A DNA stretch of 54,405 nucleotides, filler included, from Streblomastix strix (taxonomy: Eukaryota), in the NCBI GenBank assembly GCA_008636045.1. It is 3 parts of 3 records of this genome, joined end to end, with 100 filler letters (N's around TTAATTAATTAA, not from the genome) between each part and the next. Parts side by side here need not be neighbours in the genome. Positions count along the whole stretch, not along the records: positions 36,351 to 54,405 come from SNRW01000645.1; 2 more parts are not named here. One strand, written 5' to 3'. Below, piece by piece: positions 20,338 through 54,405 of this stretch. Both the position numbers and the translations under genes were made by a program. Within the stretch, counting starts at the first letter, position 1. Each line of letters starts with the position of its first letter. The notes beneath the pieces were generated by a model. That model did no database searches and had not been told where the DNA came from. It saw only the letters and a program-made list of their open reading frames with translations.

Positions 20338-20387
20338 TATAAATCATAAGGTTATAATATATTGATACAACTTATTATGCATTATAA

Positions 20388-25869: not shown

Positions 25870-26240
25870 AAAAATTATTGGATGTGCAAAATTCAATAAA
25901 TTCAATGATAAATAATATTATTAAATTAAATATATTAATTAATAATTAATTATATGTTTAAAAATATTATAAATACTTGTATATAGTTATAGGAATTGTA
26001 CAAAATCTGGATTATTTATATTTAAACTGAGAATTCGCGCGCATAGATTGTAAAAATTATGAAATTATTTAATAAATATAAAAATAAAATTTTGCATTGA
26101 TTCATAAATTAAAAAATTCGAAACTATTGATATTTATAGATTTATTCGACAATAAATTTATTTTTTTAATTCTTGTTTAATTTTTAATATTTTTTAGTTC
26201 TAACAAATTTAAGTATATTATACAAGTGAATTCCATATAA
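25870..26240. repeat. Diverged non-coding element shared with 34755-35125 (upstream of importin and of FAM32A)
   Basis: Collinear blocks ATAGGAAT.GT.CA.AAT, TCGCG, GATTGTAAAA.TTATGA.ATTATTT, TGATTCATAAAT, TTTTAATTCTTGTTTA.TTTTTAATA. Confidence 0.65.
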
Positions 26241-26377
26241 TTTTTTGAATAATTATTCATTTATAAAAACTTTTTTTATGAAATTTTAATTTTAGTATTA
26301 AAAGGATAATTTTCTTTTAAATTTTATACTAAATAGGATGAGTGTAAATGAACTCATTGTTTATACTTAAAATAATA

Positions 26378-26745
26378 ATCATTATAAACTTTAATAAACT
26401 CTTGAAGAATTAATTAACAATTTGGTAAAAAGTCAAAAAACAAAGCCACTTATATTTTCTAGATAAATTTTTCTAATTTTAATTTTCAAAATATTGTTTA
26501 TTTATTCAAATCTCTACAAAGACAAACAAAATATTGATCCAAAATCTCGAACGGAATTCTCGAACTTGCACAGATTTTCCCTCCACATTCATAGATCTAA
26601 ATTATGTATTCTACATATTTAATTATCAAAATTTTATAATACTTAAATTAAACACCCTTTTTAACTATATTAATAGTTTCATAAACCTTGTATTTGACTT
26701 TGAACAAATATTTTTAACATTTAACTTTCTACAATAAATATTTTG
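26378..26745 (+). repeat. ~370 bp element, near-identical inverted copy at 33652-34021
   Basis: Long near-identical stretch including GATCCAAAATCTCGAACGGAATTCTCGAACTTGCACAGATTTTCC; both copies give the same spurious 67-aa ORF. Confidence 0.95.
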
Positions 26746-26774
26746 TTATTTATTTATAATATTTTTTATTAAAG

Positions 26775-32700: not shown

Positions 32701-32845
32701 ATTTGGCTATTCTCTTTCAAATTCAGAATAACTCCAATTTGCTCAGGAAATGGAATATCTGATGTAATTGACCCTACTCACACATAATTTGCCTCCAACT
32801 ATCCTTGTATATGCCTCACATCCAGTTGTTACTAGCGATATTTGA
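26775..32845 (+). CDS. SLC12 cation-chloride cotransporter family protein (SLC12A9-like), multi-exon
   Basis: RKLGMISGV, KGGGAYFIISRTLGVEFGG, NMSGDLKNPQRDAPYG, APNFRSSF, KYWRPSLL, CNDLKKGGLLVLA, GIGGMRTN, C-terminal LPPTILVYASHPVVTSDI*. Confidence 0.9.
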
Positions 32846-32939
32846 TATGGAACATATATTGTTTGACAATCAGCTCATTTTTTATATTCAATTTTAATAA
32901 CTCGTGTAAATAAATGTCATTAAATAAAATGTGAAGTGA

Positions 32940-33620
32940 TCAACTAAATTATTGCTGATTTTCATCTTTTTAACTAGTTTCATTTACTTCTATTTTTTGT
33001 TGTAATTTCTTTTTGTTTAACTTTGGTTTATTATCAGATATTTAACTTTAATCCACTTTTGTGTCAATTTCCTTCTCTTTATTCTAACTAGTATTCTAAT
33101 TATGCTTTTCAATATTTGCATTATTTATCTTCCTTTTAATTTTCTTGTGGTGTGATCGAGGTTGAGGAGTAGTATTTGAAAATTCAACAAGGATTGGTCG
33201 ATCATCAACAAGCTTTTGTTTCATTACTGCAACAGCATGGGTTGCATCTTGCACCGATGGGAAATCAAGAAATGCATATCCTAATGAATGCTTTTTCTCT
33301 GCATCCATCACAATCCTGCATCCGGTGACTGGGCATCCATGGTCACGGAATGCACGGCGTAAATTATGTTCAGATGTTTTGAATGAAAGATTTCCTACAA
33401 ATATCTATGCATTAATGTCAAATACCACTTATTCATGTTTATCTTTGAGTTTCTATTCATTTTCTATTAGACCTTCATCATTATATCTCATCCGTTTTCG
33501 TGATACATTTGGTATTTCCTCTTCATTTTTACTTTCTTCCTAAACTAGATTTTCTTAAGGAATGTCATATTATCGCTTCCTCTTTACTTTGTGCATCTCG
33601 TTTTTAAAGTCTTAATGCAT
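32940..33620 (-). CDS. Single-RRM RNA-binding protein (226 aa)
   Basis: RNP2 IFVGNL and RNP1 LGYAFLDF; ATG..TGA in frame with TAR=Gln. Confidence 0.9.
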
Positions 33621-33651
33621 TTATTCTATCAATATTTAAATAAAATTTAAT

Positions 33652-34021
33652 AAAATATTTATTGTAGAGAACTAGATATTAAAAATATTTGTTCAAAGTC
33701 AAATACAAGGTTTATGAAACTATTAATATAGTTAAAAAGGGTGTTTAATTTAAGTATTATAAAATTTTGATAATTAAATATGTAGAATACATAATTTGGA
33801 TCTATGAATGTGGACGGAAAATCTGTGCAAGTTCGAGAATTCCGTTCGAGATTTTGGATCAATATTTTGTTTGTCTTTGTAGAGATTTGAGTAAGATAAT
33901 ATTGTTTTGAAAATTTTACTTTTATTGATTTATTTAGAAAATACTAATTACTTTATTTTTTTGACTTTTCACCAAATTGTTAATTAATTCTTCAAGAGTT
34001 TATTAAAGTTTATAATGATTA
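33652..34021 (-). repeat. Inverted copy of the ~370 bp element, upstream of the RRM gene
   Basis: Reverse complement of 26378-26745. Confidence 0.95.
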
Positions 34022-34177
34022 CAGAACCAGGTGTATACGTTTTATTCTTAAATATAACACAAGAATATGATTAGAATGAAATGCATTAAAACTATATTAT
34101 TAAGGATATATTGAGTAAAACATTTTCTGATTCACACAATAATTCCTCATAAATTTTATTTAATTCTGTTCATAAAC

Positions 34178-34678
34178 TCATCCTGGACCTACCTTAGGAA
34201 TATCAAAATGCTATGGTAGCTTCTCAAGTTGGTCATTAAATCGCCCAATATTTTAACGATATGTTTGCTTTGCTCGCTACTTAATAATTTCCAACTCCTA
34301 AAAAAGAATGGTTTAGAATATATAATTGAATATAAAAAATACCCTTTTTGCAAAATCTTCCTCAAATTTTAGCTCTGCGGGTGTTTTCAAGCTACGAGCA
34401 ATTTCATCTGCGTGTTTCTCTCTGCTCTCAGCAGTGCTTTCATTACCAATATCTGTTTCCTTTAATGTGGATTAGTCTATCCCGTCTTTTGGTGATAATT
34501 TTTGTACTAATTCATGATCTGGCTCGGGTGACTTTATCCTTCGTCGTTTTTTTGTTTTTTTCTTCCTTTCTGGTAACTCTTCGCCCTTCAAAACAAACCT
34601 TGCAACAGGCACTTCATAATCATCAGACGCAATACGCTTAACGGGTTTATCTTTCGATTATTTTGATGTCATTGCCAT
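34178..34678 (-). CDS. FAM32A: FAM32A/DUF1754-like protein, one intron (~34298-34342)
   Basis: KTPAELKFEE...KR and C-terminal FNDQLEKLPQHFDIPKVGPG* typical of the family. Confidence 0.85.
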
Positions 34679-35154
34679 ACACTGATAAATTACAAGTGAA
34701 AACAATGTAAATTTATAGTTTTATTGAACATATTCCAGTGACAAACGCAATATATTGTTGGAATGTGCAGATTAGTGATTGTATTGAGAAATAATATTTA
34801 TTAATTGCGTATATTAGTTGGTAAATAATTATATGTTAAAAATTTAATAAAAAAATATATTTAGTAATAGGAATAGTGCAGAATTTATGTTTATTTATTC
34901 ATTCTATTAATTAACTCGCGAGTTTGGATTGTAAAATTTATGATATTATTTTAAAAGTTGAGGAATTAATATTTTGTAATGATTCATAAATCATAAAAAT
35001 TGTAACAAATTATATTAACAGAACTATTTGATTAAAAGCTTAATCTTTTAATTCTTGTTTATTTTTTAATAATATTTGATTTTTTTCAAATTCTAATTTA
35101 AAATACATGTGCATTTTATATAAATTTTTGGCAAAGATCTACTACATAAGTATC

Positions 35155-36250
35155 AGAAAACATTATATGAGTATTATCCACATTGATAGAGTATATGCCC
35201 ACATTGAGTGAGTATGTGAATACGTTATTTGAGGATATGTAAACAATATCTGAGTATGTATAAACAACAATTTAGTATGAAAAAACATTATACGAGTAAA
35301 AAAAATTTCTAATCATTTTAATAGATAAACATTCCACGTGTATTCAAAAACTATATATGAGTACTTGTACACAATAAATGAGGATCATCAAACATTATTG
35401 GAGGATTACAGAACATTATATGAAGATATTATATCTTCAAATATTTGATTAATTTTTAATGTTTAGGTTAGGCGTACGATCCGCACATTGTCTGCTCATG
35501 CGTTAATATATAGAGAGTTAATAGGATATGTCAATTTTACAAAACAAAATTGTTATTATTTCATGTAGCGCCAGAATTTTATCTTTTTTGTTAAAAAGGC
35601 AAATGTTTATGCAGGTCAATTGAGAGTCGCACGCCTAACCCTATCATTAGAATATATTAACGCATGAGCAAGCAACGTGTGGACCGCACGTCTAACCAAA
35701 CCATTAAAAATAATCAAATATTTGAAGATATAATATCTTCATATAATGTTCTATAATTCTCCAATAATGTTTGATGATCCTCATTAGTAGTTATGAGAAT
35801 ATGGAGAGTGCCCCACATGAAGGAAATTAAATAAATAAAGTAAATAAATTATGTTAAATAAAATAATGAATAAAATTAAAATTAAAATAAAATTTGTTTG
35901 TTTATTAATGCGAAAGAAAATATGCACTTGAATAAAATTAATGTTTGACGTATATAGAATGATTTGTGAAATGGATTAGTGAAATACATAAATGATATTC
36001 GTTATTGAGTTGTTTCTTTGTACGTATGGCACTCTCCATATTTACATAACTACATACGCAGTTGAATTAGGAACGTTAATAAATTTGGTTGATGAATTTG
36101 GATAATGGAAGTCTAAAATTTATTGAAGTTGCAACGCTGAAATCGTTGAATGAATTCATTGTATTTTGAATACACGTGGAATGTTTATCTATTAAAATGA
36201 TTAGAAATTTTTTTTACTCGTATAATGTTTTTTCATACTAAATTGTTGTT
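35155..36250. repeat. Foldback-like structure: degenerate ~21 bp tandem units plus nested inverted repeats
   Basis: ACATTATATGAGTAT-like units 35155-35425; IR 35263-35350/36164-36250; IR 35377-35511/35652-35785. Confidence 0.85.
35787..36052. mobile_element. MITE-like insertion within the foldback arm
   Basis: GTAGTTATGAGAATATGGAGAGTGCC ... GGCACTCTCCATATTTACATAACTAC terminal inverted repeats. Confidence 0.7.
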
Positions 36251-36350
36251 NNNNNNNNNNNNNNNNNNNNNNNNNNNNNNNNNNNNNNNNNNNNTTAATT
36301 AATTAANNNNNNNNNNNNNNNNNNNNNNNNNNNNNNNNNNNNNNNNNNNN
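36251..36350. other. Artificial contig spacer
   Basis: 44 N + TTAATTAATTAA + 44 N. Confidence 0.99.
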
Positions 36351-36481
36351 CATAGATTTAGGGGTATATTGTTCATGCTATTGATTTAAAATTACCTATA
36401 TCCACTAGGGGCTTGAGCTATCCATTCAACGTAATCCTTTTCACTATCATTGTTGATTATTTACAGACCTATTTAAGTCAT
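36351..36481 (-). CDS. 5' fragment of a viral hypothetical protein (MTQIGLQIINNDSEKDYVEW...)
   Basis: ATG following AAAA, open to the contig edge. Confidence 0.4.
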
Positions 36482-36513
36482 TTTATTTAATGTAAAAATA
36501 AACATCGTTATAT

Positions 36514-37335
36514 TCAGTGGATTGATCTCTCGGAAATGGTCTATCTAATTTGATTCATTATCTCATCTACATCTTAATCATTAGGTATAGTGAAACCAAG
36601 ATTCATCATTATAATACCTCTTTTATTTAACATATCCTTAATGACATGGTCAATTGATACCGCTATTGGTAAATTATTTATATAAATAGTTGATCTTTAC
36701 TCTATTAAAGGATATTTATTGATACTATTTTTATGTAATCTATGGACCTTATAATACCTCCCATCAATGTCTTCGTTAATGAGTTCAACTGAGTATATAT
36801 AATCATATTACTTATCTTAAGGTACTAATCTAGGTTCCATTTGTTGTATTGTATTACTATAGTCAATGTTCTCACGTTAAAGCTGTTCAATTAATCTACT
36901 TGTATTAACCTCAAAGGTAATGTGTGTTTGTTAGCTATTTTCGTTAATTGAGTCCATTATATCTGTAACAATATCAAGATATTTAATATTTGTTTTCATA
37001 CAGATGATATTAACTAATCTTGGATTAATATATGTTCCTCTAACTTCATTTATATATTCATTGATTAATTGATACTCACTAAGTGTGGAGAGCTAGCTGG
37101 TTTTCAAGCCAGCCCACTTATCGTTAATAAATTGCTTATATTATTTGTATAATTGAGTTGTAGATATATTCTTTAATTACTTATTTGGTTATTCGAGGTC
37201 ATTAATCTTTTATACTAGTTTCGCTGCATTAATGTATCCATCTTAATCTCTTATCATTATCTCAAATCCATTATATGTTCCGATAGTGAAGGTTTCGTTA
37301 TTGGATGTAATTTTAGTTGCTGTTGGGTTAGTCAT
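36514..37335 (-). CDS. KilA-N domain protein (273 aa)
   Basis: GTYNGFEIMIRDQDGYINAAKLV ... VRGTYINPRL, hallmark KilA-N motifs; intact frame. Confidence 0.88.
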
Positions 37336-37364
37336 TTAGCTTATCGATAAAGTAATGGAAAAAT

Positions 37365-37719
37365 AAATGAAGTGTAAAAATAGAATAATCGTAGATTCTT
37401 AACTCGATGAGTTAATTCAAAGTACATTAATATCGTTAATGATCTGGTTAATTGTATCATTTAAAATCCTTTCATTGGTTTATATATTATACATTCGACA
37501 TAATGGGATCATTTGCTCTAGTTTATTAATGATTCGTTATTTAAGTATAGTTTTATTCTATTTAACTGTATCCCATAATTCCGTTTGCTAATCCATCAAT
37601 TACTTTATCATTAATATTTGTTCGTTATGTTTAATAAGCTATTACTTGCATTTAGGATTCTAGCATTCTCCTTAATCTATATTTCCGTTGAGTTATGAAG
37701 GCTATAAGTCATAATCCAT
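37365..37719 (-). pseudogene. Small viral hypothetical protein, probably frameshifted
   Basis: MDYDLQPSQLNGNIDQGECQNPKCK... open frame under TAR=Gln. Confidence 0.4.
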
Positions 37720-37769
37720 TTACATACAGGTAAAAAAACGAAAAATAGAAAACTTTAATTAAATATTCA

Positions 37770-38327
37770 ATATCACATTATCATATCCTTATTTAACTCT
37801 CCAATTATATCCTATTCTAATACTATTATTTATGGATTTAATTAACATTTATTTTCCTTTTCATATTATTTTCTCCTCATCTATTGAATCTCACTATATG
37901 TATACCTAGATTATGGTTCTCCTTCAATGTCGGAATAATTAGTATCATTAACGTTTTTAATACTATCTTATTATAATTTCTTATCATACGCAGCTTTGAT
38001 TTTCTATTCGATGTTATCTTACTATAATTACCTATCATTATCTGCTTTGATTTTCTATTCGATGTTACGATTCGGTTCCGAAAATTATAGCTAACCAGTC
38101 AGCGATGATGGCTTTGCTAAGCAAGTAGATTAATGAGGTGATAATCGAAGATTCTCAGACAACTAGTTGGCTGATTAGTCCGTAGTCTATTATTCAAGCA
38201 ATTTATCGAGTTTCTCATTTATATCATTTAATGACAATGCTATCTCGAATTGCTATTATGTTTCCTCTATCATCTTAAGTATTTTACGCATGTATTCATT
38301 TATGTCATATATATCATTCTTATCCAT
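37770..38327 (-). CDS. Viral hypothetical coiled-coil protein with internal NIEQKIKA duplication
   Basis: MDKNDIYDINEYMRKILKMIEE...; 51 bp-period direct repeat at ~37994/38045; 3' end uncertain. Confidence 0.45.
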
Positions 38328-38359
38328 TTTGCCATTGAATAAAAAATAATCAAAAAATA

Positions 38360-38569
38360 TCACTTAGGTCCATTAATGTATCGATCAACTCCACCAGCTA
38401 TCCGTTACCCTACTCCCATAGCTGCTCCTACTCCTGGATGAATCATACAAACTGGACCTGCTAATGTACCCAATACCTTATTCAATGTTGGGGCAACCCA
38501 ACCTGCAGCTTTAGTTATACCTCCTAATATTTTGCTACCGAAATTTTTCAATCCAGACCAAAAATCCAT
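38360..38569 (-). CDS. 69 aa Gly-rich amphipathic protein resembling the adenovirus protein VI membrane-lytic helix
   Basis: MDFWSGLKNFGSKILGGITKAAGWVAPTLNKVLGTLAGPVCMIHPGVGAAMGVGQRIAGGVDRYINGPK*; intact; divergent from the putative MCP. Confidence 0.75.
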
Positions 38570-38629
38570 TTAATATAATAAAAAACTAATCGATTAATAT
38601 GTCTAAGCTGTTTATTTTTTGTAATCTAA

Positions 38630-40595
38630 ATGTCATTTGCATCAAGCGATTATCTGAAACGATTAGCTCAAGCACAACATTCGGATTACATTAACTCATA
38701 CTCATAATTCTAGGAAGTAATGCAGACATAAACTATAGTAGCATAATCATTTAATTTCTCTAAGCAATAATTCTATGATTAACTAGTGACTTAACTCACG
38801 AATGATGGAGCACATTATACTAGAGCTCCACTCGGGGCAAGAGGTCTCTCTACCTGTTCATGTGTTTAAACTTGTTAGATCAGTTGGTAAATTTAGATAC
38901 CAGCGAATACATTAGCGATATAGGTTAATGGGATAAAGAGTAATGGTGCAGCAGGTTTAGCTGCTAATAGATAAATATCAAATTATAATGTTTTTGATAC
39001 TAATAATTGGATAACACCTTAATCAGTAACAATGGAATCAGGTGTTGAAAATAATTAATAGAGATATAATATTGATGAGGAACACATTAAATTTTGGTTA
39101 GGTTTCTCAACAGCTTGTGAGCCATTTAATTAGATTGCTATATGCAAAGATTTGTAGAAACTATGGGATACATCAATATATGCTAGAATGTAAGCAATAT
39201 TTGCATCAAACTCATTGACTAACGAATGTACCGCTAATTTTGTGACTGTTTCACCACCTGAAAGTATAGTATAAGGCAAACGTCATTGTGGGGTATTTAT
39301 TGATATACCTACTGCTAAGATTAGTGTTGCAGGAGCTTTTAAATTACCTAATACCCTATGATATAGTATTTAGTAGAGTAATGGATCTGAATTAGCTAAA
39401 CCCTATCTTCAACAGCTTTCCCGTATTGACTAGAATTTATGCTTAATTGCATATATAACTCTGGATGAAAGATTTCTTATAAGACCTGAAGGTAGTTTGG
39501 TTGAATAAATACAATCCAGTTGATAATTCATATCTAGCCTATACAATGATTACACCAGAGAAACCTGATATAATTTACTTAAAAAATAGAGCTTACAATG
39601 AATATGCTTCATATGCTATTCGACTAGTTAATATGGAAGGTAAACCTAATACAACTACTATACCTACAGCCACTATAAGTTAGATTAAATATGCTAAATT
39701 TAATAAGCTATATATAAATAACCTATGCTTTAATATAGAGAATGAAGCAGTAATTGTTGATATGATTCGTTAAACAAGATTAGTTAATTTTCCTACATAA
39801 ATTTTATGTACTTAATCATCAAATTACCCTGCTAGTAACATTGCTGATGGTGGTGGATTTATTTAATCAATAATGTCATTTGCTAACATCAAGTCGATTT
39901 TCTTCACATTTGCTATGCCATAATATCCTACATGGGTCTTCCCTGTTCTATTTAAAAATATTGATTTGATTATAGATTAATGACATGTTATTTCAAGTGC
40001 TTATCCTGCATTAACTTAAGATGTCTGTAGATAAATGTTCGATTGTTTCGTTGATTAAGATATAGTTAGTGCTTCATCTGATTTATATCATTCATTGGTG
40101 TTTGAAAACGAGTCTATTGATGATCATAGCTATCCATATGGAATTGAAGTTGCTGAAACAGTGGGTTAACTTAGGCCAGTATCTAATGTATTTTATGCAA
40201 CGACACTATATTAGGGATCTAAAGCAATTAAGACATACTATCCTAATAAGTTTATGCTTGCATGGAAATTGGCCAGTGATGATTCATTTATGAGAGGGTA
40301 TAACTCATCTAAGATAGGTGCAAGAACTAACGTACAAGTATAACTCGGTATGACGCATGTAAATGCTATATGCACGGATGAGCCAATTATACCCGCTGAT
40401 CTAGACTAAAACAACTTTAGTTACTTTACCTCAACTAGATGTTACCCCAATATTAAGAACGTTAAATTGACTCCATTAACCCACTAACTATGCGATGGAA
40501 TTGTTCGTATAATGTTTGATGATAACCCCGATCCACAAGTGCTATCATTAGAGGTCATTGGCGTGATAAGTAGAAGTGCAATTAGATCTGGATGA
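38630..40595 (+). pseudogene. Putative major capsid protein (double jelly-roll), frameshifted
   Basis: ~650 codons, beta-strand-like alternating hydrophobic segments (IKSIFLTFAMPQYP, IDLIID); largest non-fibre gene of the packaging module; no diagnostic motif, so the call is contextual. Confidence 0.55.
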
Positions 40596-40718
40596 AAACA
40601 AGTAGTTATTTTTACTTAAATTAAACGGAACATAAATCGAAGATATTCAAATAATTAACGACAAGGATAATGAAGGACAATTTTTAAGACAAATAGCTCA
40701 TTGAGTAACTTGATGGTA

Positions 40719-41125
40719 TGTTGAAGGAGTTAATTAATACAGGCTAATCAAAAGGATAGATTCATCCACTTTACTATGAGTTATCTAATCTTAGTAGCAA
40801 CTTTGATATAATGAATGAACGACTTTACTAGTTTAAGCGTTAAAGTGATATAGAGTAATATAACAATAAGCTATACAATGAAAATCACTACGACTATATA
40901 AAAACATATAATAAGTGCAAAGAGGAGATAAACATTAATCCAAAAATAATCAAGATAAAATAGTACCTATTAATGGATGCTACTAACGAAGAAAAATAGA
41001 CATATAATTAGTTTGTATCTGAATAAAAACATAAGTTGTTTTGTGACTACTATTAATTAAATCCAATCATTTTAAAGGATCGAATTGAGCCAATATAGTC
41101 AGATAGTCAAGGTACTTGATTAGCT
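40719..41125 (+). pseudogene. Viral hypothetical protein, frameshifted
   Basis: Protein-like frames (MLKELINTGQSK..., IVPIMDATNEEKQTYNQFV). Confidence 0.35.
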
Positions 41126-41328
41126 CTTTGCACTTGTCTGAAAGTATTACTTCATCACTATCATAGTACTTATTTTTGATCAATTAATACTCATGCTAAT
41201 TGATGTCGTTAATGTGATCCGTTAATGCTTTATAGATATGCTATATTTCATTATCTGAAGCGTTAATCTTATGACCTAGTTATTAAGCTATCGTAAAGAA
41301 CTAATCCATTTCATAGATACAAAAATAA

Positions 41329-43566
41329 TCAAGGAGGGACTGATCCCATCGTTAATGGATGAGCTCTCCAGAACACATTATTTTCATTGCTATAGAATTT
41401 ATTATTAGTGTCAACGCTATTCATACCCCATAAGATAGGATTGCCTGCTGAGTAATTAACTGAACTATTACTTGATCCACTTTATGCTCCTGTGCCAGCG
41501 ATAACAGATCCATTGAAAGATAGAGTATTTCCATCAGCTGAGATCATTAATCATCTATTAGCTGTAATTTATTCACCTGCTTTTACAATAACGAAACCCA
41601 ATGGATTTAGAAAGTCATTACCTGATGTTCCAATTAGCCATTAATTAGCAATAAATCCACTGGTTGAATTTGAATCACAACCAAATTATATATTACTCCA
41701 TTAGTTATTAATTGATCTGCTAATTCTTAATCCTTCAGTATAATCTCTATTATTTGTAGGATTAATCTATAGCTCATTATTGAATTATTTTATACCTGTA
41801 ATTGATTAATCAGTTCCAATATCAACTAATAAATTACCATTGAATTTAATTATTGAACTATCGCTGTTAATTGAAAGCCTAACACTATGGTCAGCTTATC
41901 GTAGAGATGATTGGTTAATTATCAAGGCATTATCATTCGTTTTACTTATATCCCATTAACCTGTTTATGTAGTATTTATAGCAGTAGTTGCACATCCTAA
42001 ACATAATGATGAGTATTCAGAGTTATAATCTTTAATTCTAATACCATTATTATATGTACCATAAGTTCGACCTGTTGGATTAACTTATAGCATTCTATTA
42101 ATTATTCCACCATTAGCTAAATCATAAGTAATTGGTATTTATGTAGCACTTGATACTGATGTAACTACATTCTATGTTAATATCTCTGTTATTCTATTAG
42201 TATAATAAGTGCTTTAATCCGATACCACTATCGTAATGTTATTAGTTGTTTCTATTCTAACATATGATGAATAAATAGCAGATGTACCTGATCCAGTATG
42301 AGTATGAAATAGTTAATATACACCACTTTCTATAACATAGTTAGCACTAATTTGAGTTGGAGCTGCAAATATACCATATATAGTATTGATTCAATTAACG
42401 GTATAATAAGGCACCAATCTAATGGTTTGAACAGCATTATACATTGAATATTTTTTAAATTCTATGAATGGACTACCAACACTAGCACCTGCAGGAAATA
42501 CACATAATCTAATCCATCCACCTGCACTACTGTTGTATGATCTTGATAACTTTGAATCTATTGTTGTTGTATCTCCATTAGCGCATAGCACTTCTGAAGC
42601 AAGTCCACCTGTTTTAATAAATTTAGTAGCAGTTACATTTCCATCATAAGTCAATTGCTATGAATGAACATGATCGTGTCGAGCATAAAAAGTAGATGAT
42701 CCATTAATCCCTACTCCATCAAATATAGGTATATTCGAAGCATTAGTCTCAACGTTAATGACATGTTAATGGTCAGATATAGTGTATGAATTTGCTGTAC
42801 AAATTGATCCATCTCCATCTTAAATCGGTACCTCTGATGATATATTGATAGCATGAGAATGATCTGATCTAGTATAATTAACTGAAGCACCGACTGAACC
42901 ATCAGCTGTTTCACTAATCGGTACACTAGTCGATATGTTTAATGGATGGATATGTTCTCCACGTGAATATTCAGCACTAGTTCCTGCATTTACTGTACCA
43001 TCGGATAATGGATTAGCATCACTTGCAGGAGTCATTTAGTCAGGGACAAGCTTATCAGTTTCAATCCATTAACTCCCATCATAATCCCATTCTAATAAAT
43101 CCTCTGCACTATACGCATAATCACCTATTGCAGGATTAGACAGTTATAGTATCTCATCGTTAGTTGTAAAGTAACCTCTGAAGTGAGTCTATCGTGCTAA
43201 TTCAGTGTTAATAACTTATACATCAGCCTATAGCTATCCTATGTCTTAACTGTATCCATTAATCTGTTACTATATATTTTATATCTATTACTCTAGTATG
43301 ATTGTTTTTTAGAGGAAATCGTTGTTTATTAATTGTATGTTGTTAACGATCAATAAGCCATCTTGCGTTCATTTCATCGCATAATCTGTGGGGTTATTCT
43401 TAGGACAATACAGTAGGTTATTTTAGTCGTCAATTGTTAATTAATAGTTATCATTATCCATCACTCCATTCGAACTGCTCTTCTTTGTATACTACATATA
43501 ATAACTAATATCTGAGTGTATTAATCGTTTGATTACTGACAATTGTTATTATGAAAGAGAAGTCAT
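41329..43566 (-). pseudogene. Fibre/tail-fibre-like protein (~745 codons) with His-containing repeats; at least two internal TGA
   Basis: Coiled coil, then repeats YSRGEHIHP / YTRSDHSHA / YTISDHQHV / YARHDHVHS, KFIKTGG..EVLCANGD and beta-rich GIRI repeats. Confidence 0.75.
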
Positions 43567-43580
43567 TTTAGTTAATTTAA

Positions 43581-43970
43581 ATGAGTATTATTTCATTAAT
43601 CATGTCAATATTCAATTATGTATTCTATGGAGCTAATTTTTTGTTATCTGTTATTAGTGTATCAATACCTGATCAAGCGTAAGAGCTAATCAATGTATTT
43701 AAAAAGCTATGGAGTTATCTTGATGTGATAGTGATACCGATTAATATTGTAATCTATATTGTTAAATTCTTCTATCATCGTAAAATGCAAATTAACAAGG
43801 ATCACCATTGGAGTTAATATACTATTGATGAGCTGTATTAGTTGATATAATTAGCTATAGACGCTAAGGATCTTAAATTAGCCTAGCATTATCGATACCT
43901 GATTACTTTAAAATTGATTAATTAAACCAATTAAAATGAGTCTATCAGAGATAAAGCAAATATAGTTTGA
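43581..43970 (+). CDS. Small predicted membrane protein
   Basis: MSIISLIMSIFNYVFYGANFLLSVISVSI...VIVIPINIVIYIVKFFY, two hydrophobic segments; 3' end overlaps the ATPase start. Confidence 0.5.
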
Positions 43971-44972
43971 TACTTATAATATGCTAGATGAATATAAAAC
44001 TCGTCCATTAACGTCTAAATCAATCTTCCTTATTAATGCAAACCATTATATAGTAGGAGCTGTTAGAAGTGGTAAAACAACATTAATGAGTAAATTAATC
44101 GTGTTGTATAAACATATAATTAACCCCTACATACTATACTTCTCAAATATGGGACCAGATGAAAGTATGTCGTTTAATATGAACGATAAAATATAGCAAT
44201 TAATAATATAACTTATGATACTGCGATGATGTTTCTGCCTTAGTTCGATGAGATTAAATACAAGGTTAAAGAGATATATACCTATTGGAAATTAAAGCAA
44301 ATTAATTTCAAATACAATAGTGATTACATTAAATAACTCAAGTAGAATATGATTAATGCAAATGAGTTAAAGAAGGATGAATCGTATCAATAGTTTACAT
44401 CTCGAATGAAGGAGTAATTTAAGACCTATTGTATTGAAACAATTAACGAATATAATTAACCCACGAAGCTAATGTAATGTACTATCCCACCGTTAATATA
44501 GAATGTAAGTTATGAGAAAACATTAAAAATAATAGACACAGAAGAGATTGTTGAAGATGGTGTATCGATAATCAAAACACTAAAATTACCTATACTATAG
44601 AATGCACGATTGTTATCTTCATTAATGATCTTTGATGATATTGGTTCAAATACAGATATATAAAGATATACTTCATAGCTATCTCGTACAATAATTCATC
44701 TCGTTAGTGATAATCATCATTCTAAAAATACCTTATTCTTTGTAGCTTAACGTCCTAGCTATATGTTCAAGACAGCTCGCATCTTATGTCATGTAATAGT
44801 TATAGGAACAGGGATATCCGATAATGATATCAAGTAAATATACAATGAGAATCATATTAACACCTTGTCTGAAGAAGAACTAATAATTCTATATAATATG
44901 TTTCATTAATAAGAGTTCATTATCATCAACAAGTATGAGAATAGGTTTGAGTTAATTAGATAAGACCATTGA
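43936..44972 (+). pseudogene. A32/FtsK-HerA-like genome packaging ATPase, one frameshift (~44210)
   Basis: Walker A IVGAVRSGKTT, Walker B LMIFDD, NHHSKNTLFFVAQ and downstream KTARIL motifs. Confidence 0.88.
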
Positions 44973-45660
44973 TTTTAGAAGTAATTTCATCATTCAAATC
45001 GAGATTATAATATTGATCACGAGTTCGTTGATTATTGTTAATTAGCTTAAGAAATTTAACTTTATCTTCTATCTATATCTCATAGCGACATATAACATCA
45101 TCATCTGTTTTTATCTGATGTTTTTTCATTATTACATCGTACATTAATTTATCGTCATCAGTATCATTACCCTTAATGTAATTGAATATATCGTTCATTA
45201 ATTTCTTCGCTTTAACGTTATACCTTAATGTAGTGGATAATGGTATGTTATATATCTCCAAGAATAATAGTCTCCCTATTCGACCATTACTATCTTCGTG
45301 TGGATGTACGCGTTAGTAGATTAGAAAGTACTTGAATTTAGTGACAGGATCATTGGTCTAATGAGCCTTGTTCACTAGCTCCTGTAGATAAAGTGGATCG
45401 ATTAATTCATGTCTAATTCCTACGTTATCTGCTGATATTATTTTTGAATTATTCTTACCACTAACGTAAACACTACATTAGCGATGTACGTGTTACATCT
45501 TAGGAAATATCAGTCTATATACTTCATCAATATTAGGGTATGTTTTATCAAATATGTATTAAATTGCTTCATTAACTGTTTCATTAGGTATGAAACCCTA
45601 TTCGATGAAATTTGAGTTCATTATACATTGTTTTAAGTAAGCTGCATCTATATTATTCAT
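44926..45660 (-). CDS. Fic/Doc-domain protein (244 aa), intact frame
   Basis: IYQRVHPHEDSNGRIGRLLFLE at ~45255-45320. Confidence 0.87.
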
Positions 45661-45804
45661 TTTAAATCAAATATAAATATGATCTGAGAGATAATTACTA
45701 GTGTATCATTAATGATAATAGCTTGCACAAAAATAATAAAATGGGGGTTAATCATATATTAAATACATGTAGATAATGAAGAGATTAGTGATGAGGTAAG
45801 GAAC

Positions 45805-46851
45805 TCAATTTATGGTTGAAAAATTATGTAAGGCATATGAATCATACACCTAAACACAGAATAGATCGGGAAAATTTATCTAACACAGTGTATTGATTCT
45901 AACATGTCCATCCACATCAATGTAACAGTCTATCGGTATAGCACCATTCCAGCATATAGGATATCCCAATACCTTCTACGCAAACATAACAGCATTAAGA
46001 GGTATAGTAAATGGTGTACTAGTAAATTAAGGTTTAGCTTCATCCTTAAACACAGAGAACAATGTATAGGTTGATTATGTCTAAGTATTAGGATTGTTGT
46101 GTGTTATTTACAATGATATATAAGCCCTTCCATTATATGTAGTAAATGAACCCCAAGCTAATGATTCATACATACCATAAGCGATTGTTGATTTGATAGC
46201 GTTTTCAATTGGAGGAGTTGGTAGGGGTGATACTAACTAATTATTGAACTTGAGTTAAGTGCAATCGAAATCGATAACCAATCCCTTGTAATCATAAGCA
46301 TAATCCTGTTATTTTTGTACCATGAATTATGATAAAGTCGATCCCATCTTCCATACTCCATCGCTATCAGTTGGATCGTTATTACAACCCGTTAATACGA
46401 AGCTATCCCAGTTCGCTTTATTTTTCATTATCCTAAGCCCTTAATTACGAATATCATTATCAGGTTCAATTATCATCTACTCCATAGCATGAGGATAGTG
46501 TTTAGGTAAGAAATCACCCACATCAGTTATATCTCCATTAGCTAATAGTAATTAGTTATCAGTACCATTAGTCTTGATGAATTAATCGGCTTAGACTGAC
46601 TGTGTGAATTATTTATATCCTGTTACCATTTGATCAGTATCTAGTGTCATTAACTTAGATAAATTGACATTTGTTTTCATGTATTAGCTAAAGTAAGTAA
46701 TCAGTTTAATAATCTCGGAGTCAATGAAACTGGTTAACGATTTTTATAGCTTCTCTAATTACTTTACTTCCTCTTATTTTTACTATATCTCTTACAGCTA
46801 TTGTTATATATTTATTAACTCCTCATCAGTTGGTTCGATTAATAAATTCAT
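45805..46851 (-). CDS. Second, shorter fibre-like protein (348 aa)
   Basis: Coiled-coil N-terminus; TLDTDQMVTGYKQF and QFIKTNGTDNQLLLANGD share repeats with the long fibre; beta-rich C-terminal head. Confidence 0.7.
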
Positions 46852-46869
46852 TTTAACAAAAATAAACTG

Positions 46870-47516
46870 GTCAGAATTCATTTATATCAATCTCTGATGC
46901 AGGTTTATCTGATAGTCTAACGAAGTCCTTATTGACTCTATATAACTTCTCAACTGAGTTTCAAAGCACATTATCAATCACACTAATGCTTACGTTTTTA
47001 ATTAATACATCTATTACTCTAACAAGGTCTTTCTTCTTATATTTCTTAGTCATACATGAATGCGATTACATCAATGGTTCCTCTAATATGATTTTTATAT
47101 CATCCTCGTTTTCTTATATGATTAATGACCAGAATTTAATGAAGTTATCGCTATTCAATATGAAGTCATCCCCTCGCTTTCTTGATGTAGTTACTCTCCA
47201 TATGCAATCGATAACGAATTTAAGGACCTCTAGATTTGGATGTGCTAAGAATGTATTTTTAACCACTTACTCTGGTTCAACTTAAGCATTTTCTCGTTCT
47301 ACTTCTTAGTATTTATTTTTATTATAATGTCTCTTAGGTTTATCTTCTTTGATTAATTCAGCTTTAATTTCCTATGGAGCTGATAAGTTTCTCAAGGCTT
47401 AATCAATTGATTATAATCTAAGTTTATCTTCTTCTGTTAATTCTTTCTTCATGTCTTCGATTTGTTTCTTTGATTTACTCATACGGAGTTAATTCCTCTC
47501 GATACTTGAAATCATT
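46870..47516 (-). pseudogene. Viral hypothetical protein with internal TGA
   Basis: MISSIERNQLRMSKSKKQIEDM... open under TAR=Gln. Confidence 0.45.
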
Positions 47517-47546
47517 TAAATCGATTAAAAATTTAATCATTGATAA

Positions 47547-48083
47547 ATGGATAAATCACAAGCCTTAAGAAAATTAAAAGAAAACGGTACTACATTCGAA
47601 AGCTTCACTGGAGGCTATTTAATGTAAATAGGTAAGTAGATTAAAGTATTTGATGATGGTTAGAAGGCACCTAAAGTATTAACATAAGCATAATAAAATA
47701 AGTTGCTATAGATGCCTACAATTATAAAATAATAAGAAGAACGATTAATGTATTAAAATAATAAAGATGATGAAAGTGAAGAAGAAACTAAAGTATAATA
47801 AGCAGTAGTTAAAAAGAAGATTAAAGCAATATGGAAATAACCCTCTATTAAATATACTACTCCATAGATTGATCTTGAAGAGCTAATTAAATTGCGAACA
47901 GAAAATCGATTCATTAAGTAATAACATATCGAATCATAGAAACAAATTAGTAAATATAAGAATGAGCTTAAATCAATGAAATTGGTAAAAGAATAAGTAA
48001 TTAAAGAATAGCCTATTGAATAATAATGGCCAATTTAAGAGTAAGTTATCGAAAGATATATTAATGAGTTTGAGTTATATTGA
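47547..48083 (+). CDS. Viral hypothetical protein (MDKSQALRKLKENGTTFESF...)
   Basis: ATG..TGA frame followed by TTTATTTTT. Confidence 0.55.
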
Positions 48084-48114
48084 TGATTTATTTTTGCATC
48101 ATCTATTTCATTGC

Positions 48115-50545
48115 TTTCACATCATTGTAACAAGGAGGGGGAGTCCTTTGTAATCAAAATGTTTAATTATATCAAATAATCGATATGGTCAACGAGTAGG
48201 AGGTCCTTGAGGGAAGTCAATTACATGCGTTAAAAGGGTACCATTTAAAAATGATGATATATCTTTGTATATGGTATGAATTGATGCTTATTGTTATCTG
48301 CCTAGGATAAAACGGTGATTAGTCCTATGGTTCGTGAAGACCGTTTATTTTTAAAAATTATAGTTAATTTGGTTATTTATTCCGTAGATTTTGTGGATTC
48401 GTGGGAGCGGGTAGATTTGGGCTATTATCCATACGATTTTGAAAATGGTGCTAATTTCGCCAATAATATCTTCTAACCGAACCTATATGTAGACTTCAAT
48501 TACTTAATTCCACAACATAAGACACCTCACAAATCTTTTTCACTACACCCTTAACAACAATACTCACCAGTACCCATACTGAAAGAAATATTGCTATATT
48601 TAGACCAATTTCCCCTGAAGACCCACGAGGAAGCAAGGAAAAAGAACCTAAACGATAACAACCGAAACCACAACAATATGCAAGACTAATAGATGTAGTT
48701 GAAAGGTTCAAAGAAATAATGAAGCTAATAATTGAAGAGAAAAAGAAGAAACCCAAGGTTATGTTGCCCGGTTTATACAAAGAATATCAAAACAAAGACG
48801 ATCCTGTTATTTTCTACCCACCTAAGAAGTATCATCCATCCCCAATACACAGATCAAAAGACGTAGATCTCTCAGAAGATCAATGAAATTTATTTGATGA
48901 GGGACGTACGCGAGGGCGTAATCTCCATTTTATCTTTGACTAATCGACAACCTCGAAGCTTGAGCGAATCTACCAAAGGGATCATACATACAAGGGTTAC
49001 TAAACATCAGTGATGTAGTGGCTGGATTCTTTAACATACACCCTCAAATATACCAATCAAAACTTGAAGCAATAAGAGGCTTAATCATATTCGCCGCAAA
49101 ACAAATTGTGCAATCAGAGACATAAAGTAAAAACCAAAAACAGTTATCGAATAAACAAGAGATAATCGTAGCTGTTGGAACAAACGACAATGAAGACAAT
49201 GACTAATCTGAGCACGCAATCAAACCCAAGAACTTCACAAACGGAAACGATGGTCTCAGAAAGAATGATAGCGGGACGCAGTTACAGGCCACTGTCAACG
49301 GAGAAGCGAAACCCAAGATCAGTATCACATAAATATCTACCAACACTCCACCTCACAATGTATTCGGATCAGACAGACTCGTAGGAAACGGTTGAGGGAC
49401 GCAGGTACAGGCATAAACCAACAAAAATGGAGACTTAAATCATCAGGCAATAGATAAACAAGCAAATAAAACAATAGCGAGCAAGCTATTGTTAATAGAA
49501 CCAGAGAAAAATAAAATAACTAAATATCACGCAATGAAAGCCAAAATGAACAAGAAATTAAACTTCTAGACAATGGAAATACTTTACTAAAAGTGACTGG
49601 ATCACTTCGCACTACCCTTTCCGAACAAGAACTAGGAAATCAAAACATTTCATATTCTAGAAGCTAACCACCCTTAATCGCCATCCCTCCAGAATTAGAC
49701 TAAGTTAAAGGGAAAATTGTAGTACCTAAACAAAGGATGCAACCAAATAACGACCTTGATACTAGAAGCAATACAGGCTAACCAAAAACCGTAGCTGATA
49801 AATCCTTAGGGAATCCCGAGCCTAGAGCCAACATCGACATTTCTAAATATTTTATATTCTAGTAGGAGCAGAGAAAAAGGCAGATATAGCACCAGTTAGT
49901 GAAGACAAGTCTGCAAAACATTCCAAAGGCAACAATACCAGTGTAGGATCCAAGAAATAGAAACAAGGATTCAACTCCGAAAACCAGATAGAAATAGAGC
50001 CTGAATTCGAAACTGACTAGTCGGATTAGTTGGACTGAGTAAGAAGGAAAGGAGGAAAGAAGGATGGGCAGAGATCTTGTGAACCGTGAAATGAACAAAG
50101 AGAATAAAGGAATATTAGACACGATTACGGGAACAGATAGTTAGATACTTGGAATAATGGGATACAATTAAATTGATTGATTTCATCTAATAAGGATATA
50201 TTCTCGAATGATAAGATAACTAATGTATTAATAAGTTACAATGTTAGTTAAAATTAATGAAATTTAGGGGAACAAAAGAAGAAGCGAAAGAGTATAAGAT
50301 AAAGTTTGAAGAATAATTGAAAGAGAGTATTGTAGTACCGATCAGAAAGTAATGAATCAAATGGTATAACCCAATATTCATGTTAAAGAAAGCAAACGGG
50401 AAATGGAGAAAGATACTGGACGCGAAAGCATTGAATAAATAGATTGCAGACTTCCACTTCAAAATGCACGATTCGAACGAGGTGAAACAAATAATTAGAC
50501 TTGGAGATTCGGGCACTTCACTGGACCTCTCCTCCACATTTCCCT
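48115..50545 (+). mobile_element. 5' part of a DIRS/Ngaro-like retrotransposon (gag-like region and RT N-terminus), truncated
   Basis: Shift to higher GC and A-skew; RT segment follows. Confidence 0.75.
50125..50545 (+). pseudogene. Reverse transcriptase N-terminal fragment (DIRS-like)
   Basis: WYNPIFMLKKANGKWRKILDAKALNKQIADFHFKMHD...TSLDLSSTF; breaks before YxDD. Confidence 0.88.
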
Positions 50546-50549
50546 TCTA

Positions 50550-53500
50550 AAATCAACTTCATCACTAAAAGAACTTATTGAGCTTATGTTTTTATATCAT
50601 TTTTATTTGCGTTGCTCAAACCTAGACCATACTTATTTTTTGGTTCATTCAGATAACTGTAATATGATAATAGTTTAACTTTGTCTTTCAATGCATATAT
50701 CATTATTTGATTATTCCTTTCAGAACCAACTAATAGCAGTGTTAGAAGTAAATGCAACGATGGAACTAGATTATCTTCTTAGCTCAAGATCTTCAATTCA
50801 TAATCATTATCAAGAATCATATCGTGATTATCTATAAATAAATATGATTAATATAAATCAAAGATATAAATCATAATCAATTATAGATATATAATGTATG
50901 TTTATTAATAATATTATATATAAATATGATAACCATTAATATACCTGGGCAATCAGCCAACAGCTCAATATACTACTAACTGTTATTATAAATACTCTTA
51001 AGCTGATTAATTATCTCAGGTCCTGAATTTTAAGGAAGAGGATATGCTTTGTACAAAGAAGCGATAATTTAAGCAATTGCTTCTCTTATCTGTTATTTAG
51101 TATCACCTTTTCCTACTTCTATAAAATATTTGATAAGTTCATCAATAGTTCCATCATAAGCCAGAGGTTACCTCAATGGATGCTATTCTCCACCTTGAAG
51201 ATATTTCATTCCAATATTAAACAGTCCATCAAGTATTCTACGAGCAATGAAAACAACATCTTCATCAGCAGACGTGAGCATCTTCAGCACTATTGGCACT
51301 ATTCCTTTTTGAATTAATTTTCTCTTCTGATCAAATGAAAGTTGTTAGATCAAATATAAGATTAGAGATAGATTGTATGATTTGATGATAGGAAGAGGGT
51401 TATTATTGTGTAGTTTGAGAATGTTAAGAATGAATTCAGTTTCAAACACAATCATATTATTTCTTGACTGATTGTTATATATCAGTGATTTGATTATTTC
51501 TATTACGATGAGCATCAATCTTTCTTCCCCAAATACTTCAATTTCAGCCATTTCAATGTCATTTTCATAATTATCTTATTATTATCCAAATACATCTTCC
51601 TTATCTTCATTATCATTATCAATATCATTTACTCCACAATCTCTTTCTATATCAATTTCTCTATTTTAATCACTCTCATACTCTTATTCATCTGCATTGG
51701 TTCTCCCGAAGTATAAAATACGCATTAATTCTTTCAAGTTCTTTCTAACCTTAACACTCTCTTTATCAGATTCGCCTTCTTCATTCAATCTTTTTAATTG
51801 ATACATCTCATCTTCATATGAAATTATTGAATAAACTTCTGCTTTATCAATATTCTCATTGCTGGATCTTATAATTTCTTCCTAGCCAACTTCATACGTA
51901 ACATGCATTTATTCTTATTCATTTTCTTTAATTTATTCTATTACTTGATCTTTCAAATTATTATATTTACCCACATTTTTCTTCATCAATTAATCAAACA
52001 CTTTAAATAATTCATCAATCAATCTTGCTCTTATTAATTAATTTATATATTTGTTAACCTTATTAATAACTGATCTTCTTATTCTCATCAGTTTATCCAC
52101 TGTTTCTGGATAAATCAAAAAAGACTCGAGAATTTGTGTTTCATTCTTATAATCATTCCGAACCACTAACTTCTTCAGTGTTTTTGTCCTAATTTCTTAT
52201 TTCATGAGATATTGAGAGTATTCACTGCTAATGATGTAGATGTTACTGAGAAATTTGATCAATGAGTTGATCACGATTGACTCTACTTCATTTTTTGTCG
52301 TTTTCTCTATATCAATATAATATGTGGAAATAATATTAATAAATCACTAACAAAAATAAATTTAATTTATTATATATATCAATTAATTAAAAAAAAAGTA
52401 AACAAAAATAGTATACCTGAGAATATCAATAGCATTATCAAGGTATCCTTCTTCAATAATTGCATCATAATTTTCTGAATGGAATATTAATGTTATTAAT
52501 ATCAATGTAAAAAATAATATAATTAATATTATAAAAAATATCATTTTTCATTCTTTTATTAAGTATTAATATTTATTATTCATCCCTTTGTTTATAGAAA
52601 TAAATGAAAGAGCTCCAAATGATCCTTCTTACTGCATTTCATCTTATGAATTTAGCGTATTGAATCCATTGATTACTTAATCATGAAGTTATGAAGGGAG
52701 TTGAGATCCTTCAATATAGAGTGTATCAAGGAATTTGCATGTCAGTCTTTTATTCTAACTGTCTATATTTTAATTTGTAAACATTTCAGTGATTATTGTT
52801 TAAATTATCTCACGTTTATGAAGATCTGTAAAATAAGGATGTTATTGTTTGAGAATTTCTTATAAATTAGATTATTACTCAGATTATTCTAATTATTTTC
52901 ATCCATTTTTACGATGTATATGAAAGTTAGGAGAATGAACAATTGAATGTTCTTATTATTGTTGTGGAGCTTTGGGGTAAGTACCTGAAGTATACCTGAT
53001 TCGTATATCCTTTGTATTTATTCAAATGTTTCTTTCTGACATATTTAGAATAAATGCAATATTCTCGCTGTTGATAATTGAAATGTAGGAGTTCACTATA
53101 TTTGGCCAATAAGTTCATCTAGTAGTCCTGATTATATAACATTATCTATATCCTTCTCCCCATGTATTAACCCTTCAGGTTTTTGATCAATTTTGCTAAT
53201 AATTTTCTTTGCGAAGTTCTCCTATTCATCAGAAATTTTTGATTAAGCGCCACTCACTATTGTTCTAGTTGACATCAAGAATTTTCATAATTTATTCATG
53301 ATTTATATTGATGATTATTATGTATCTTTAAAGAAGAAATTTCATCATTAATTTATGTAAATTAGTTAAAAATGTCTCGTTGATTATATTACTTCTATTC
53401 AGAATAAATTTCTCTGACTAAAATTGCGAGTACTTCTTAATTCTGCATAGTGTATATTCCTAACTTCATAATATAAAAAATAAAGCAATTAATATAAATA

Positions 53501-54405
53501 AAATAATACGAATGAAATATTTATTATTTATAAATAATTAATATCAGAAGAGAACCAGTTGATTTTGTTTAGATTATTTCTTTATCGTAAATAAGTTCTG
53601 TGTATAATAAATTTATAGTTAATTTCTTTAATTGTAAATTTTAAGATAAATTTACTATATTTTTATTAGAATATTTTAAATTTTAGTAGGAAAAGCAATT
53701 TTTTATATAAATTTAGGCTTATCTACTACTGTTCTATAATTTGAATAATTATGAGAAGAATTTGTTAGGAATAATTATAAATATTGCAAATAGATTTTTC
53801 TGGAGGAATAATAGTACAAACCAAATTCGAAAATTATTAGATATCATTTTCTAATAAAAATCCAATAAATTCAGTTTTTTGATTTATATTTTGGTAAATT
53901 TAAAAAAACATATGATATTAAATTGAAATAAATGATATGATCATTACAGCATATGTTAATTATTTGAATGATTCATTCAGTATTTCTGAATCGTCTTTTC
54001 ATCTTTTTTGAGTAAAATTAACAGTATTTATGTTCTATTGATATAATTTCATTCAGTTTCTATTCTTTATTCTGCAATATTCTGTCATTAAATAAATCTA
54101 TTCAACTTGTTCATGCATTTCTTTCTTTAATCTTTCTACAAATTAATCTCTTTAAGATTTGAATTTTTATTTTCTATTTCTATTTAAATTAATTAAATTA
54201 ATAATAATTCGATTTATGATGATTAATTTTCTTAAGTTTTTTCTCTTCTTCATTGTAATTCAAAATGTTTTCAATTAGTTTAGATTTCCATAAAAATTGT
54301 AAATAGATTTATTTTATGCTGAATATGAAGAGTTTAAATGTTCATTGTTCATTTTCCAGCTAGTTGTTGCAGAAATTTTGATATTTGCATACATTATTTA
54401 TGTTA
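50550..54405 (-). CDS. Multi-exon host ARM-repeat protein (partial, boundaries uncertain)
   Basis: KLIQKGIVPIVLKMLTSADEDVV, HPLRQPLAYDGTIDELIKY, AQIIASLYKAYPLP, DAIIEEGYLDN; GT-AG introns. Confidence 0.65.

Follow-up and report, generated by a model that had tools for sequence, protein, structure and literature searches.

A decayed Polinton-like virion-gene module in the TAR=Gln code of Streblomastix strix, with a conserved amphipathic gene beside its capsid gene

We analyzed a 54,405-nucleotide stretch of DNA (the window) from the termite-gut oxymonad Streblomastix strix (assembly GCA_008636045.1). Sequence comparisons support the view that positions 36351-48090 hold a gene-dense, decayed module of Polinton-like virion genes, written in the host's genetic code, in which TAA and TAG (together TAR) encode glutamine (translation table 6). 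In our overall explanation, to which we give a probability of about 0.75, the module is one damaged copy of the virion genes of a family of Polinton-like viruses (PLVs) that exists in many copies and is likely integrated. Established within it are the code, the capsid fold (in a close relative), the family of the ATPase, the conserved gene neighbourhood, the many related copies and the lesions of the window copy. The window joins three pieces (1-18075, 18176-36250 and 36351-54405), which are separate contigs of near-equal size placed end to end artificially; the third, of 18,055 bp, carries the capsid/ATPase module. The first-pass annotation of this DNA had placed an endogenous virus at 36351..48110, and the virion module is indeed there; position 36351, which it took as the element's boundary, is the contig start after a linker and not an end of the element.

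The capsid gene of the window matches a close relative, P0003, at 76% and 83% identity over residues 1-656, with one frameshift and one TGA between. A search with the middle piece of the capsid found 164 relatives among 474 candidates; all 120 of those listed are named as S. strix, and 12 of the listed relatives carry the UniRef label 'Major capsid protein'. A first model, built on 63 close sequences, was too poor to use (predicted local distance difference test score, pLDDT, 51.6; best Z 4.9), and the addition of distant relatives to the alignment gave a usable one. That model, predicted for P0003 from 48 sequences rather than for the window copy, had a pLDDT of 75.7 and a predicted template modelling score (pTM) of 0.83. 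With it, Foldseek returned 217 matches at E <=0.001, the best being the capsids of PBCV-1 (2.5e-12) and mavirus (8.2e-12). VIA-align likewise ranked PBCV-1 first (Z 15.1, root-mean-square deviation 3.5, 339 residues aligned), ahead of faustovirus (14.9) and mavirus (12.1), and its top 14 rows were without exception double jelly-roll (DJR) capsid or scaffold proteins. The Atlas assignment for P0003 agrees. The model thus predicts that the product of this gene folds as a double jelly-roll.

The same contig carries an ATPase gene at 3.3 kb from the capsid gene, and the two are also linked in another copy. The ATPase is 88% identical to P0121 and has 30 relatives; Pox_A32 was matched by 3 of 19 aligned members, and the relative P0128 scored above the cut-off (26.2 vs 22.8 bits). 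By sequence, then, it is an A32-type ATPase. A search of PDB sequences with the ATPase profile gave nothing useful. Furthermore, locus tags were adjacent in four pairs of a capsid gene and a gene for a 69-residue protein, and adjacent or near in one capsid/ATPase pair, on equal-sized contigs. The first-pass annotation had made its reading depend on a DJR fold for 38630-40595 and on linkage between a capsid gene and the ATPase; the fold was found in the close relative P0003, and the linkage both here and in another copy.

The module consists of 14 units, here called open reading frames (ORFs) where no function is suggested, followed by a candidate end of the element:

36514..37335, minus strand: KilA-N domain protein, 273 aa (Pfam PF04383, E 6.8e-12)
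37417..37725, minus strand: ORF2, about 100 aa, doubtful; open in table 6 only, with neither family nor codon-score support
37773..38327, minus strand: ORF3, 184 aa, with a 51-bp tandem duplication; in model P0170 the ORF3 start follows the 69-aa gene
38360..38569, minus strand: basic amphipathic protein of 69 aa, predicted to be membrane-lytic (similar to adenovirus protein VI, pVI); Gly2 of the family is Asp in the window copy
38630..40595, plus strand: double jelly-roll major capsid protein gene, about 655 codons; frameshift near 39341, TGA at 39981
40592..41119, plus strand: ORF6, 175 aa, overlapping the capsid stop codon; its start follows capsid sequence in model P0107
41067..41312, minus strand: ORF7, about 80 aa; no family above the cut-off
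41329..43596, minus strand: putative fibre-like protein 1, 755 codons in one frame, with in-frame TGA at codons 76, 402 and 682
43551..43970, plus strand: ORF9, hydrophobic, 139 aa, doubtful; open in table 6, with nothing further
43936..44972, plus strand: A32/FtsK-type packaging ATPase; frameshift near 44187 and altered Walker A in the window copy
44926..45660, minus strand: Fic-domain protein, probably an optional gene (Pfam Fic, E 0.016; PHROG 5978, E 2.9e-5)
45805..46971, minus strand: putative fibre-like protein 2, with a coiled-coil start, a shared repeat and a beta-rich head; no Pfam family
46961..47515, minus strand: ORF13, 184 aa, in a region of high summed depth
47547..48083, plus strand: ORF14, 178 aa; other copies stop at codon 96 of the same frame
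48236..48474, no strand: second multi-copy patch, candidate right end of the element, from joins in contigs of run X1 and a fall in depth

The claim that at least 14 packed ORFs are open only with TAA/TAG=Gln was borne out. Between 36514 and 48083 these units account for 96% of the sequence, neighbouring ones overlap by up to 53 nt or lie up to 144 nt apart, all 14 terminate at TGA, and the longest run within them that is free of standard-code stops is 88 codons. Re-annotation with table 6, which had been suggested as a check, raised the number of ATG-initiated ORFs of at least 80 aa in the whole window from 4 (table 11) to 217, many of them by chance, since with only one stop codon remaining ORFs arise by chance in this table. 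As a control, the region holds 33 ORFs of at least 140 aa under table 6, against a mean of 16.6 (maximum 25) in 100 mononucleotide shuffles. ORF2 and ORF9, which have neither a homolog nor support from the codon score (trained on the region's own ORFs), are the doubtful members of the set.

We found that TAA/TAG make up 241 of the 294 Gln codons in the 14 units (82%), compared with 142 of 202 (70%) in five host ORF stretches. TAR codons stand opposite Q in 36 of 39 cases in the capsid gene (vs P0003) and in 15 of 18 in the ATPase gene (vs P0121); as they face Gln in relatives, their interpretation as nonsense mutations was rejected. P0003 and P0121 are themselves probably table-6 translations, and we therefore added a control with Gln codons masked, in which consensus-Q columns of 13 distant relatives were met by 9 of 34 TAR codons and by 22 of 555 other codons (p 2e-5). 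Among these 13, standard code was shown for the metagenomic loci L001 and L002 only, where six ORFs checked all end in TAA and have no in-frame TAR. The FFVAQ motif of the ATPase (starting at 44736) has its Q encoded by TAA, as had been claimed, and the aligned residue in a standard-code relative is also Q. Moreover, other copies exchange TAA, TAG and CAG at identical codons. Because 82% of Gln codons are TAR in a copy only about 10-25% diverged from its closest relatives, decay after insertion is not the source of the TAR codons; we infer that the replicating ancestor already used them, and the data support a long residence in a TAR=Gln host. Long adaptation to such a host, also proposed earlier for this DNA, is thus supported by the TAR share and the divergence. 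It is not new: according to the part of Bellas 2023 and its supplement available to us, to which all statements on that paper refer, endogenous viruses of S. strix use the host's table 6, a long association is suggested, and the code match is already published (PMC10120064). The accompanying claim that the genes are invisible to annotation holds for the standard code and fails for table 6, as they are already in public protein sets, among them P0151, which is the 69-aa protein, and P0072, a capsid model with spurious splicing.

The same codon usage could have arisen if the family had spread as a capsid-less transposon or by duplication and had gained TAR through synonymous drift, so that a TAR-coded particle never existed. 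Such a history would suit a family known from genome sequence alone, with TAR use above that of its host, as AT-biased drift would give. However, the 23 listed S. strix capsids of at least 620 aa are near full length at 48-91% pairwise identity (breaks may be concealed in some of these models by false introns, as they are in P0072), and the capsid, peptide, ATPase and fibre genes remain together, which argues for selection on virion genes during the radiation. We regard spread without a particle as quite improbable, and prefer the reading of a virus family whose intact members made virions.

The window copy itself carries a frameshift and a TGA in the capsid gene, a frameshift and an altered Walker A in the ATPase gene, three TGA codons in fibre-like gene 1, and a peptide that has lost Gly2, and appears to be dead as written. 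Its near-private changes (40 best-supported rows of about 970) comprise 20 non-synonymous and 11 synonymous among 31, close to the expectation for neutral decay. Several alleles of the window, including one fibre stop, occur in run X1 at low, flank-level depth, the other letter being present at thousands-fold more depth; this speaks only modestly against assembly error as the cause of the lesions, because X1 may be the source run of the window. Summed depth, which is not a copy number, is mostly 5,000-45,000 over the module and in the tens in the flank, suggesting a multi-copy virus family.

At the right side, summed depth drops near 48090 and rises again over 48236-48487. Five X1 contigs link the end region of ORF14 to the patch at 48236-48474; several runs have contigs that match no further than 48474-48477 and continue into unlike sequence, and depth there falls from about 14,000 to 24. 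The patch may be the right terminus of the element or a separate repeat. We take the candidate end near 48474 to resemble the short-repeat termini of Polintons; the window holds no second copy of it, and its fold is unremarkable (z 0.05). Beyond it, the contig continues into a retroelement remnant and then an ARM-repeat host gene. The remnant (48475-50530), presumably DIRS-like, combines low-complexity sequence of gag-like character with what resembles the start of a reverse transcriptase near 50380; it gave no Pfam match.

We also considered that the contig might have been misassembled, or might be the genome of a free virus present in the single-cell sample, instead of an integrated copy. 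It comes from an amplified short-read assembly of a high-copy family, and none of the contigs examined spans the whole stretch. On the other hand, for 48069-48298 and for parts of the flank there are X1 contigs with 0-1 differences, at the depth typical of the flank, the private alleles occur at that same depth, and this many inactivating lesions would not be expected in a free virus. Either version of this idea seems to us very improbable beside a decayed, integrated copy.

Several points nevertheless weigh against the reading of a decayed PLV module. The capsid fold comes from P0003 and not from the window copy, the first capsid model having failed, and the fibre calls have composition and repeats as their sole basis. 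The virus family is known here from genes alone. Pfam and PHROG scans of the contig's ORFs found no protease, integrase, penton or polymerase in this partial element, as the first-pass annotation had noted for the first three. Nor was an integrase or an Ulp1/adenain protease found in the 13 ORFs of L002, both pieces being partial, and a single jelly-roll penton gave no Pfam or PHROG match in sequence scans of an element that the contig start cuts. There is no proven terminus or target-site duplication, the left end being cut in the same way, and the argument from X1 is modest. Finally, stops in such elements can be assembly errors, as Bellas 2023 warns (PMC10120064).

As regards the capsid family, 27 near-full-length S. 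strix capsids form one group on a long stem with 100% support in the Shimodaira-Hasegawa-like approximate likelihood-ratio test (SH-aLRT); the tree, made by a quick method and drawn with midpoint rooting after exclusion of six partial rows, has long branches among outside relatives and serves for the grouping of S. strix only. When 1.84 billion representatives were searched with a profile, 212 capsid matches were obtained at E 0.001. Ten long distant matches are unnamed proteins of Logan, JGI, ENA or NCBI sets, at 23-30% identity to P0003. The genes of the distant capsids P0267, P0275 and P0282 are on contigs some 20 kb long. Outside relatives are mostly metagenomic, and the two read at the DNA level, L001 and L002, use the standard code. 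These are among three loci obtained in a metagenome scan, and in both the gene order is capsid, 69-aa gene, small ORF, ATPase. L002 also encodes a protein of 542 aa that is similar, in its N-terminus and its repeats, to the fibre-like genes of the window (E 2e-5 to the N-terminus of fibre-like protein 1, in a four-sequence comparison). Scans of IMG/VR with capsid queries and the peptide pattern found no match. With PLVs (Preplasmiviricota) the module shares a DJR capsid, an A32-type ATPase, fibre-like genes and a compact intronless layout; it differs in that the contig lacks a penton or replication gene and has a conserved 69-aa amphipathic gene beside the capsid gene.

We consider it likely, from motifs and locus tags rather than direct alignment, that this lineage with a capsid of about 650 aa is new and distinct from the Trichomonas-type cluster of Bellas 2023. 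It has much in common with the Metamonada Maverick-Polintons and PLVs of that paper (PMC10120064): both are endogenous DJR-capsid viruses of S. strix, use table 6 and occur in many copies. The module could therefore simply belong to that group, in which case its capsid family would not be new. Host and code are identical, 820 S. strix capsid hits are reported there, and our comparison covers part of the supplement, without its S. strix hit rows. In addition, a Parabasalia cluster ranks second in the Atlas feature ranking (0.96). The module also has a KilA-N gene, as trichomonad Mavericks do. However, all 820 hits of Table S4 fall in a single Trichomonas-type cluster, MMPC_40, which requires at least 25% identity to Trichomonas-type capsids over 30% of the length; the members shown measure about 550-560 aa, compared with about 650 aa here, and have about 32% identity to T. 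vaginalis (PMC10120064). Six locus tags and four peptide motifs of our family are absent from the examined part of the supplement, four motifs of the Bellas representatives occur in 0 of the 271 proteins gathered here, and none of the four Bellas locus tags seen is among the 120 listed capsid relatives. The Atlas keeps the two as separate clusters, and the nearest outside relatives of the present family are unnamed, mostly metagenomic proteins at 23-30% identity. Identity with the published group therefore appears improbable. The literature searched held no report of oxymonad Polintons, and a 2026 preprint leaves Metamonada elements unplaced in the portion available to us (10.64898/2026.06.19.733378).

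The 69-residue gene beside the capsid gene is kept in both the S. strix and the standard-code groups, judging by sequence. Its family has 33 matches including the window protein, 24 of which begin Met-Gly, and its profile, run against 63 ORFs, picks the ORF directly after the capsid gene in L001 and L002 (E 1.5e-8 and 4.8e-9), so that the gene stays adjacent across about 27% capsid identity. The first 18 residues are predicted to form a basic amphipathic helix, beginning at residue 3, with a hydrophobic moment of 0.49-0.61, against a 95th percentile of 0.35 for 18-mers of the capsid, and a net charge of +2 to +4. We think it rather probable that the protein works as a capsid-borne lytic peptide. 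Membrane-active accessory proteins have been proposed for adintoviruses, mavirus and cryptophyte PLVs, and vacuole-escape candidates of PLVs are discussed in PMC12220804 and PMC8502044. Capsid-borne membrane disruption, in particular, is the role suggested for adintovirus PLA2X, GasderminX and cupiennin-like proteins (PMC8502044) and for the C-terminal helix of the mavirus capsid (PMC6048507); these have other sequences and other hosts, and the portions of those papers available to us describe none as pVI-like in sequence. The peptide of the present lineage is probably new.

Could it be a homolog of adenovirus pVI? A single-sequence query of 177,635 PDB sequences matched only adenovirus pre-protein VI (E 6.8), and two profile searches reached four and six pVI sequences (E 2-5 and 0.34-1), aligning pVI residues 39-58. 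The matched residues, with a common W-S-G-L/I-K-N-F-G-S stretch in the N-terminal amphipathic helix, fall within the lytic helix of pVI, residues 34-54 (10.1101/857581). The N-F-G-S core is invariant in 14 of 14 aligned members from both groups. The gene adjoins the major capsid gene, just as the pVI gene adjoins the hexon gene.

Against homology, similarity to pVI did not reach significance in the PDB (E 0.34-6.8), 0 of 30 family members match the pVI Pfam family, and the Atlas gives a 69-aa relative no name and does not name pVI. The same PDB profile searches also returned dicistrovirus VP4, the nodavirus gamma peptide and higher-scoring designed helices. Two features that define pVI, its size of about 250 aa and the removal of an N-terminal propeptide by cleavage, are missing: the protein has 69 aa, against 217-266 aa in PDB chains, and no propeptide precedes its helix. 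Most members begin Met-Gly, and no protease was found. We therefore do not file it as pVI, and homology seems doubtful. The stronger claim that an uncatalogued PLV lineage, with both a TAR=Gln oxymonad and standard-code organisms as hosts, has a true pVI homolog in the form of a 69-residue, protease-independent, probably myristoylated lytic peptide is unlikely, if only a little more so.

We lean slightly towards an independent origin, in which the gene product is a cationic amphipathic peptide that either lyses membranes or binds DNA, and convergence explains the nine residues that match pVI. Its E-values of only 0.3-7 in the PDB fit this, as do comparably weak matches to the viral peptides and designed helices just named and to phage T7 protein 7.3, the cecropin family as nearest in Pfam, and the unrelated cupiennin-like peptides of adintoviruses (PMC8502044, as far as available). 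Convergence has to account, however, for pre-protein VI as the sole match of the single query, for the position of the matched residues inside the lytic helix, for the invariant core in both groups and for the shared place beside the capsid gene. No report of a pVI-like gene in Polintons or virophages was found in the literature searched.

Among the remaining genes of the module, both putative fibre-like proteins share repeats, and the first is rich in S, N, T and I. Gene models P0149 and P0172 of other copies fuse KilA-N sequence to ATPase or 69-aa-gene sequence. Over 44926-45660, several public gene models pass from the ATPase directly into sequence opposite fibre-like gene 2, and depth over the Fic gene is lower, which suggests that Fic is present in some copies only. 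ORF14 may be shorter, or two genes. In L002, the ATPase is followed (5380-9443) by three paralogous ORFs in tandem, each of ~200 aa, and by an ORF of 701 aa without a known family. One of these may be the missing penton; the 701-aa ORF, in which a penton-like motif was picked out by eye, was not counted as such, having no Pfam or PDB match and no counterpart in the window.

The other two contigs carry no established part of the element. Identical N-run linkers with a core of stops in all frames separate the pieces (18076-18175 and 36251-36350), and neighbours across them carry no meaning. Pfam and PHROG scans of piece 1 found a decayed PolB, two D5-type primase-helicase genes and a Fic gene. 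The PolB (PHROG 1907, E 6e-7) is followed by a beta-rich ORF in frame with the Fic domain (2403-7749). This Fic is 47% identical over 236 aa to that of the capsid module, the sole tie between both contigs, and the PolB/Fic stretch may represent the replication module of this virus family or of a sister family. A phylogeny of PolB and the ATPase had earlier been suggested as a check on the element; since the window consists of three unlinked contigs, membership of PolB and primase in the element is not established, and neither was accepted as part of the capsid module across an artificial linker. The D5-type genes, both decayed (9135-11390 and 15171-16785), are ~73% alike in DNA where matched, and a repeated stretch lies near them (8690-8805 and 11732-11847). 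Piece 2 carries host genes for importin-5, SLC12 and RRM (Pfam scan). An inverted repeat pair (26376-26765 / 33631-34021; 331 nt at 89% and 65 nt at 98%) surrounds the SLC12 and RRM genes, and a nest of inverted repeats, one of 87 nt and perfect, the others of 88 nt (93%) and 60 nt (85%), precedes the contig end at 35263-36250, as a foldback element or an amplification chimera.

Under the explanation that we prefer, intact members of the family would build a double jelly-roll capsid, pack DNA with the A32-type ATPase and attach through the predicted fibres. The 69-residue protein would be packaged, possibly N-myristoylated and lytic, and would likely mediate escape from the uptake vacuole; exposure of its helix would not depend on a protease, since the helix already lies at the N-terminus. 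The family would have replicated and diversified while already using TAR codons, and for that reason is likely confined to hosts with the TAR=Gln code. The window copy would be dead, its polymerase, integrase and penton lying beyond the contig end or lost.

The code match by itself adds little, being already in print. If the capsid family is indeed uncounted, it would be a second large load of endogenous viruses in S. strix beyond the 820 reported capsid genes, and the lineage offers a natural comparison of standard-code and recoded relatives within one virus group. The 69-residue gene is a directly testable candidate for the escape of PLVs from the uptake vacuole and a possible origin of adenovirus protein VI; if that were true, the endosome-escape protein of adenoviruses would trace back to viruses of protists.

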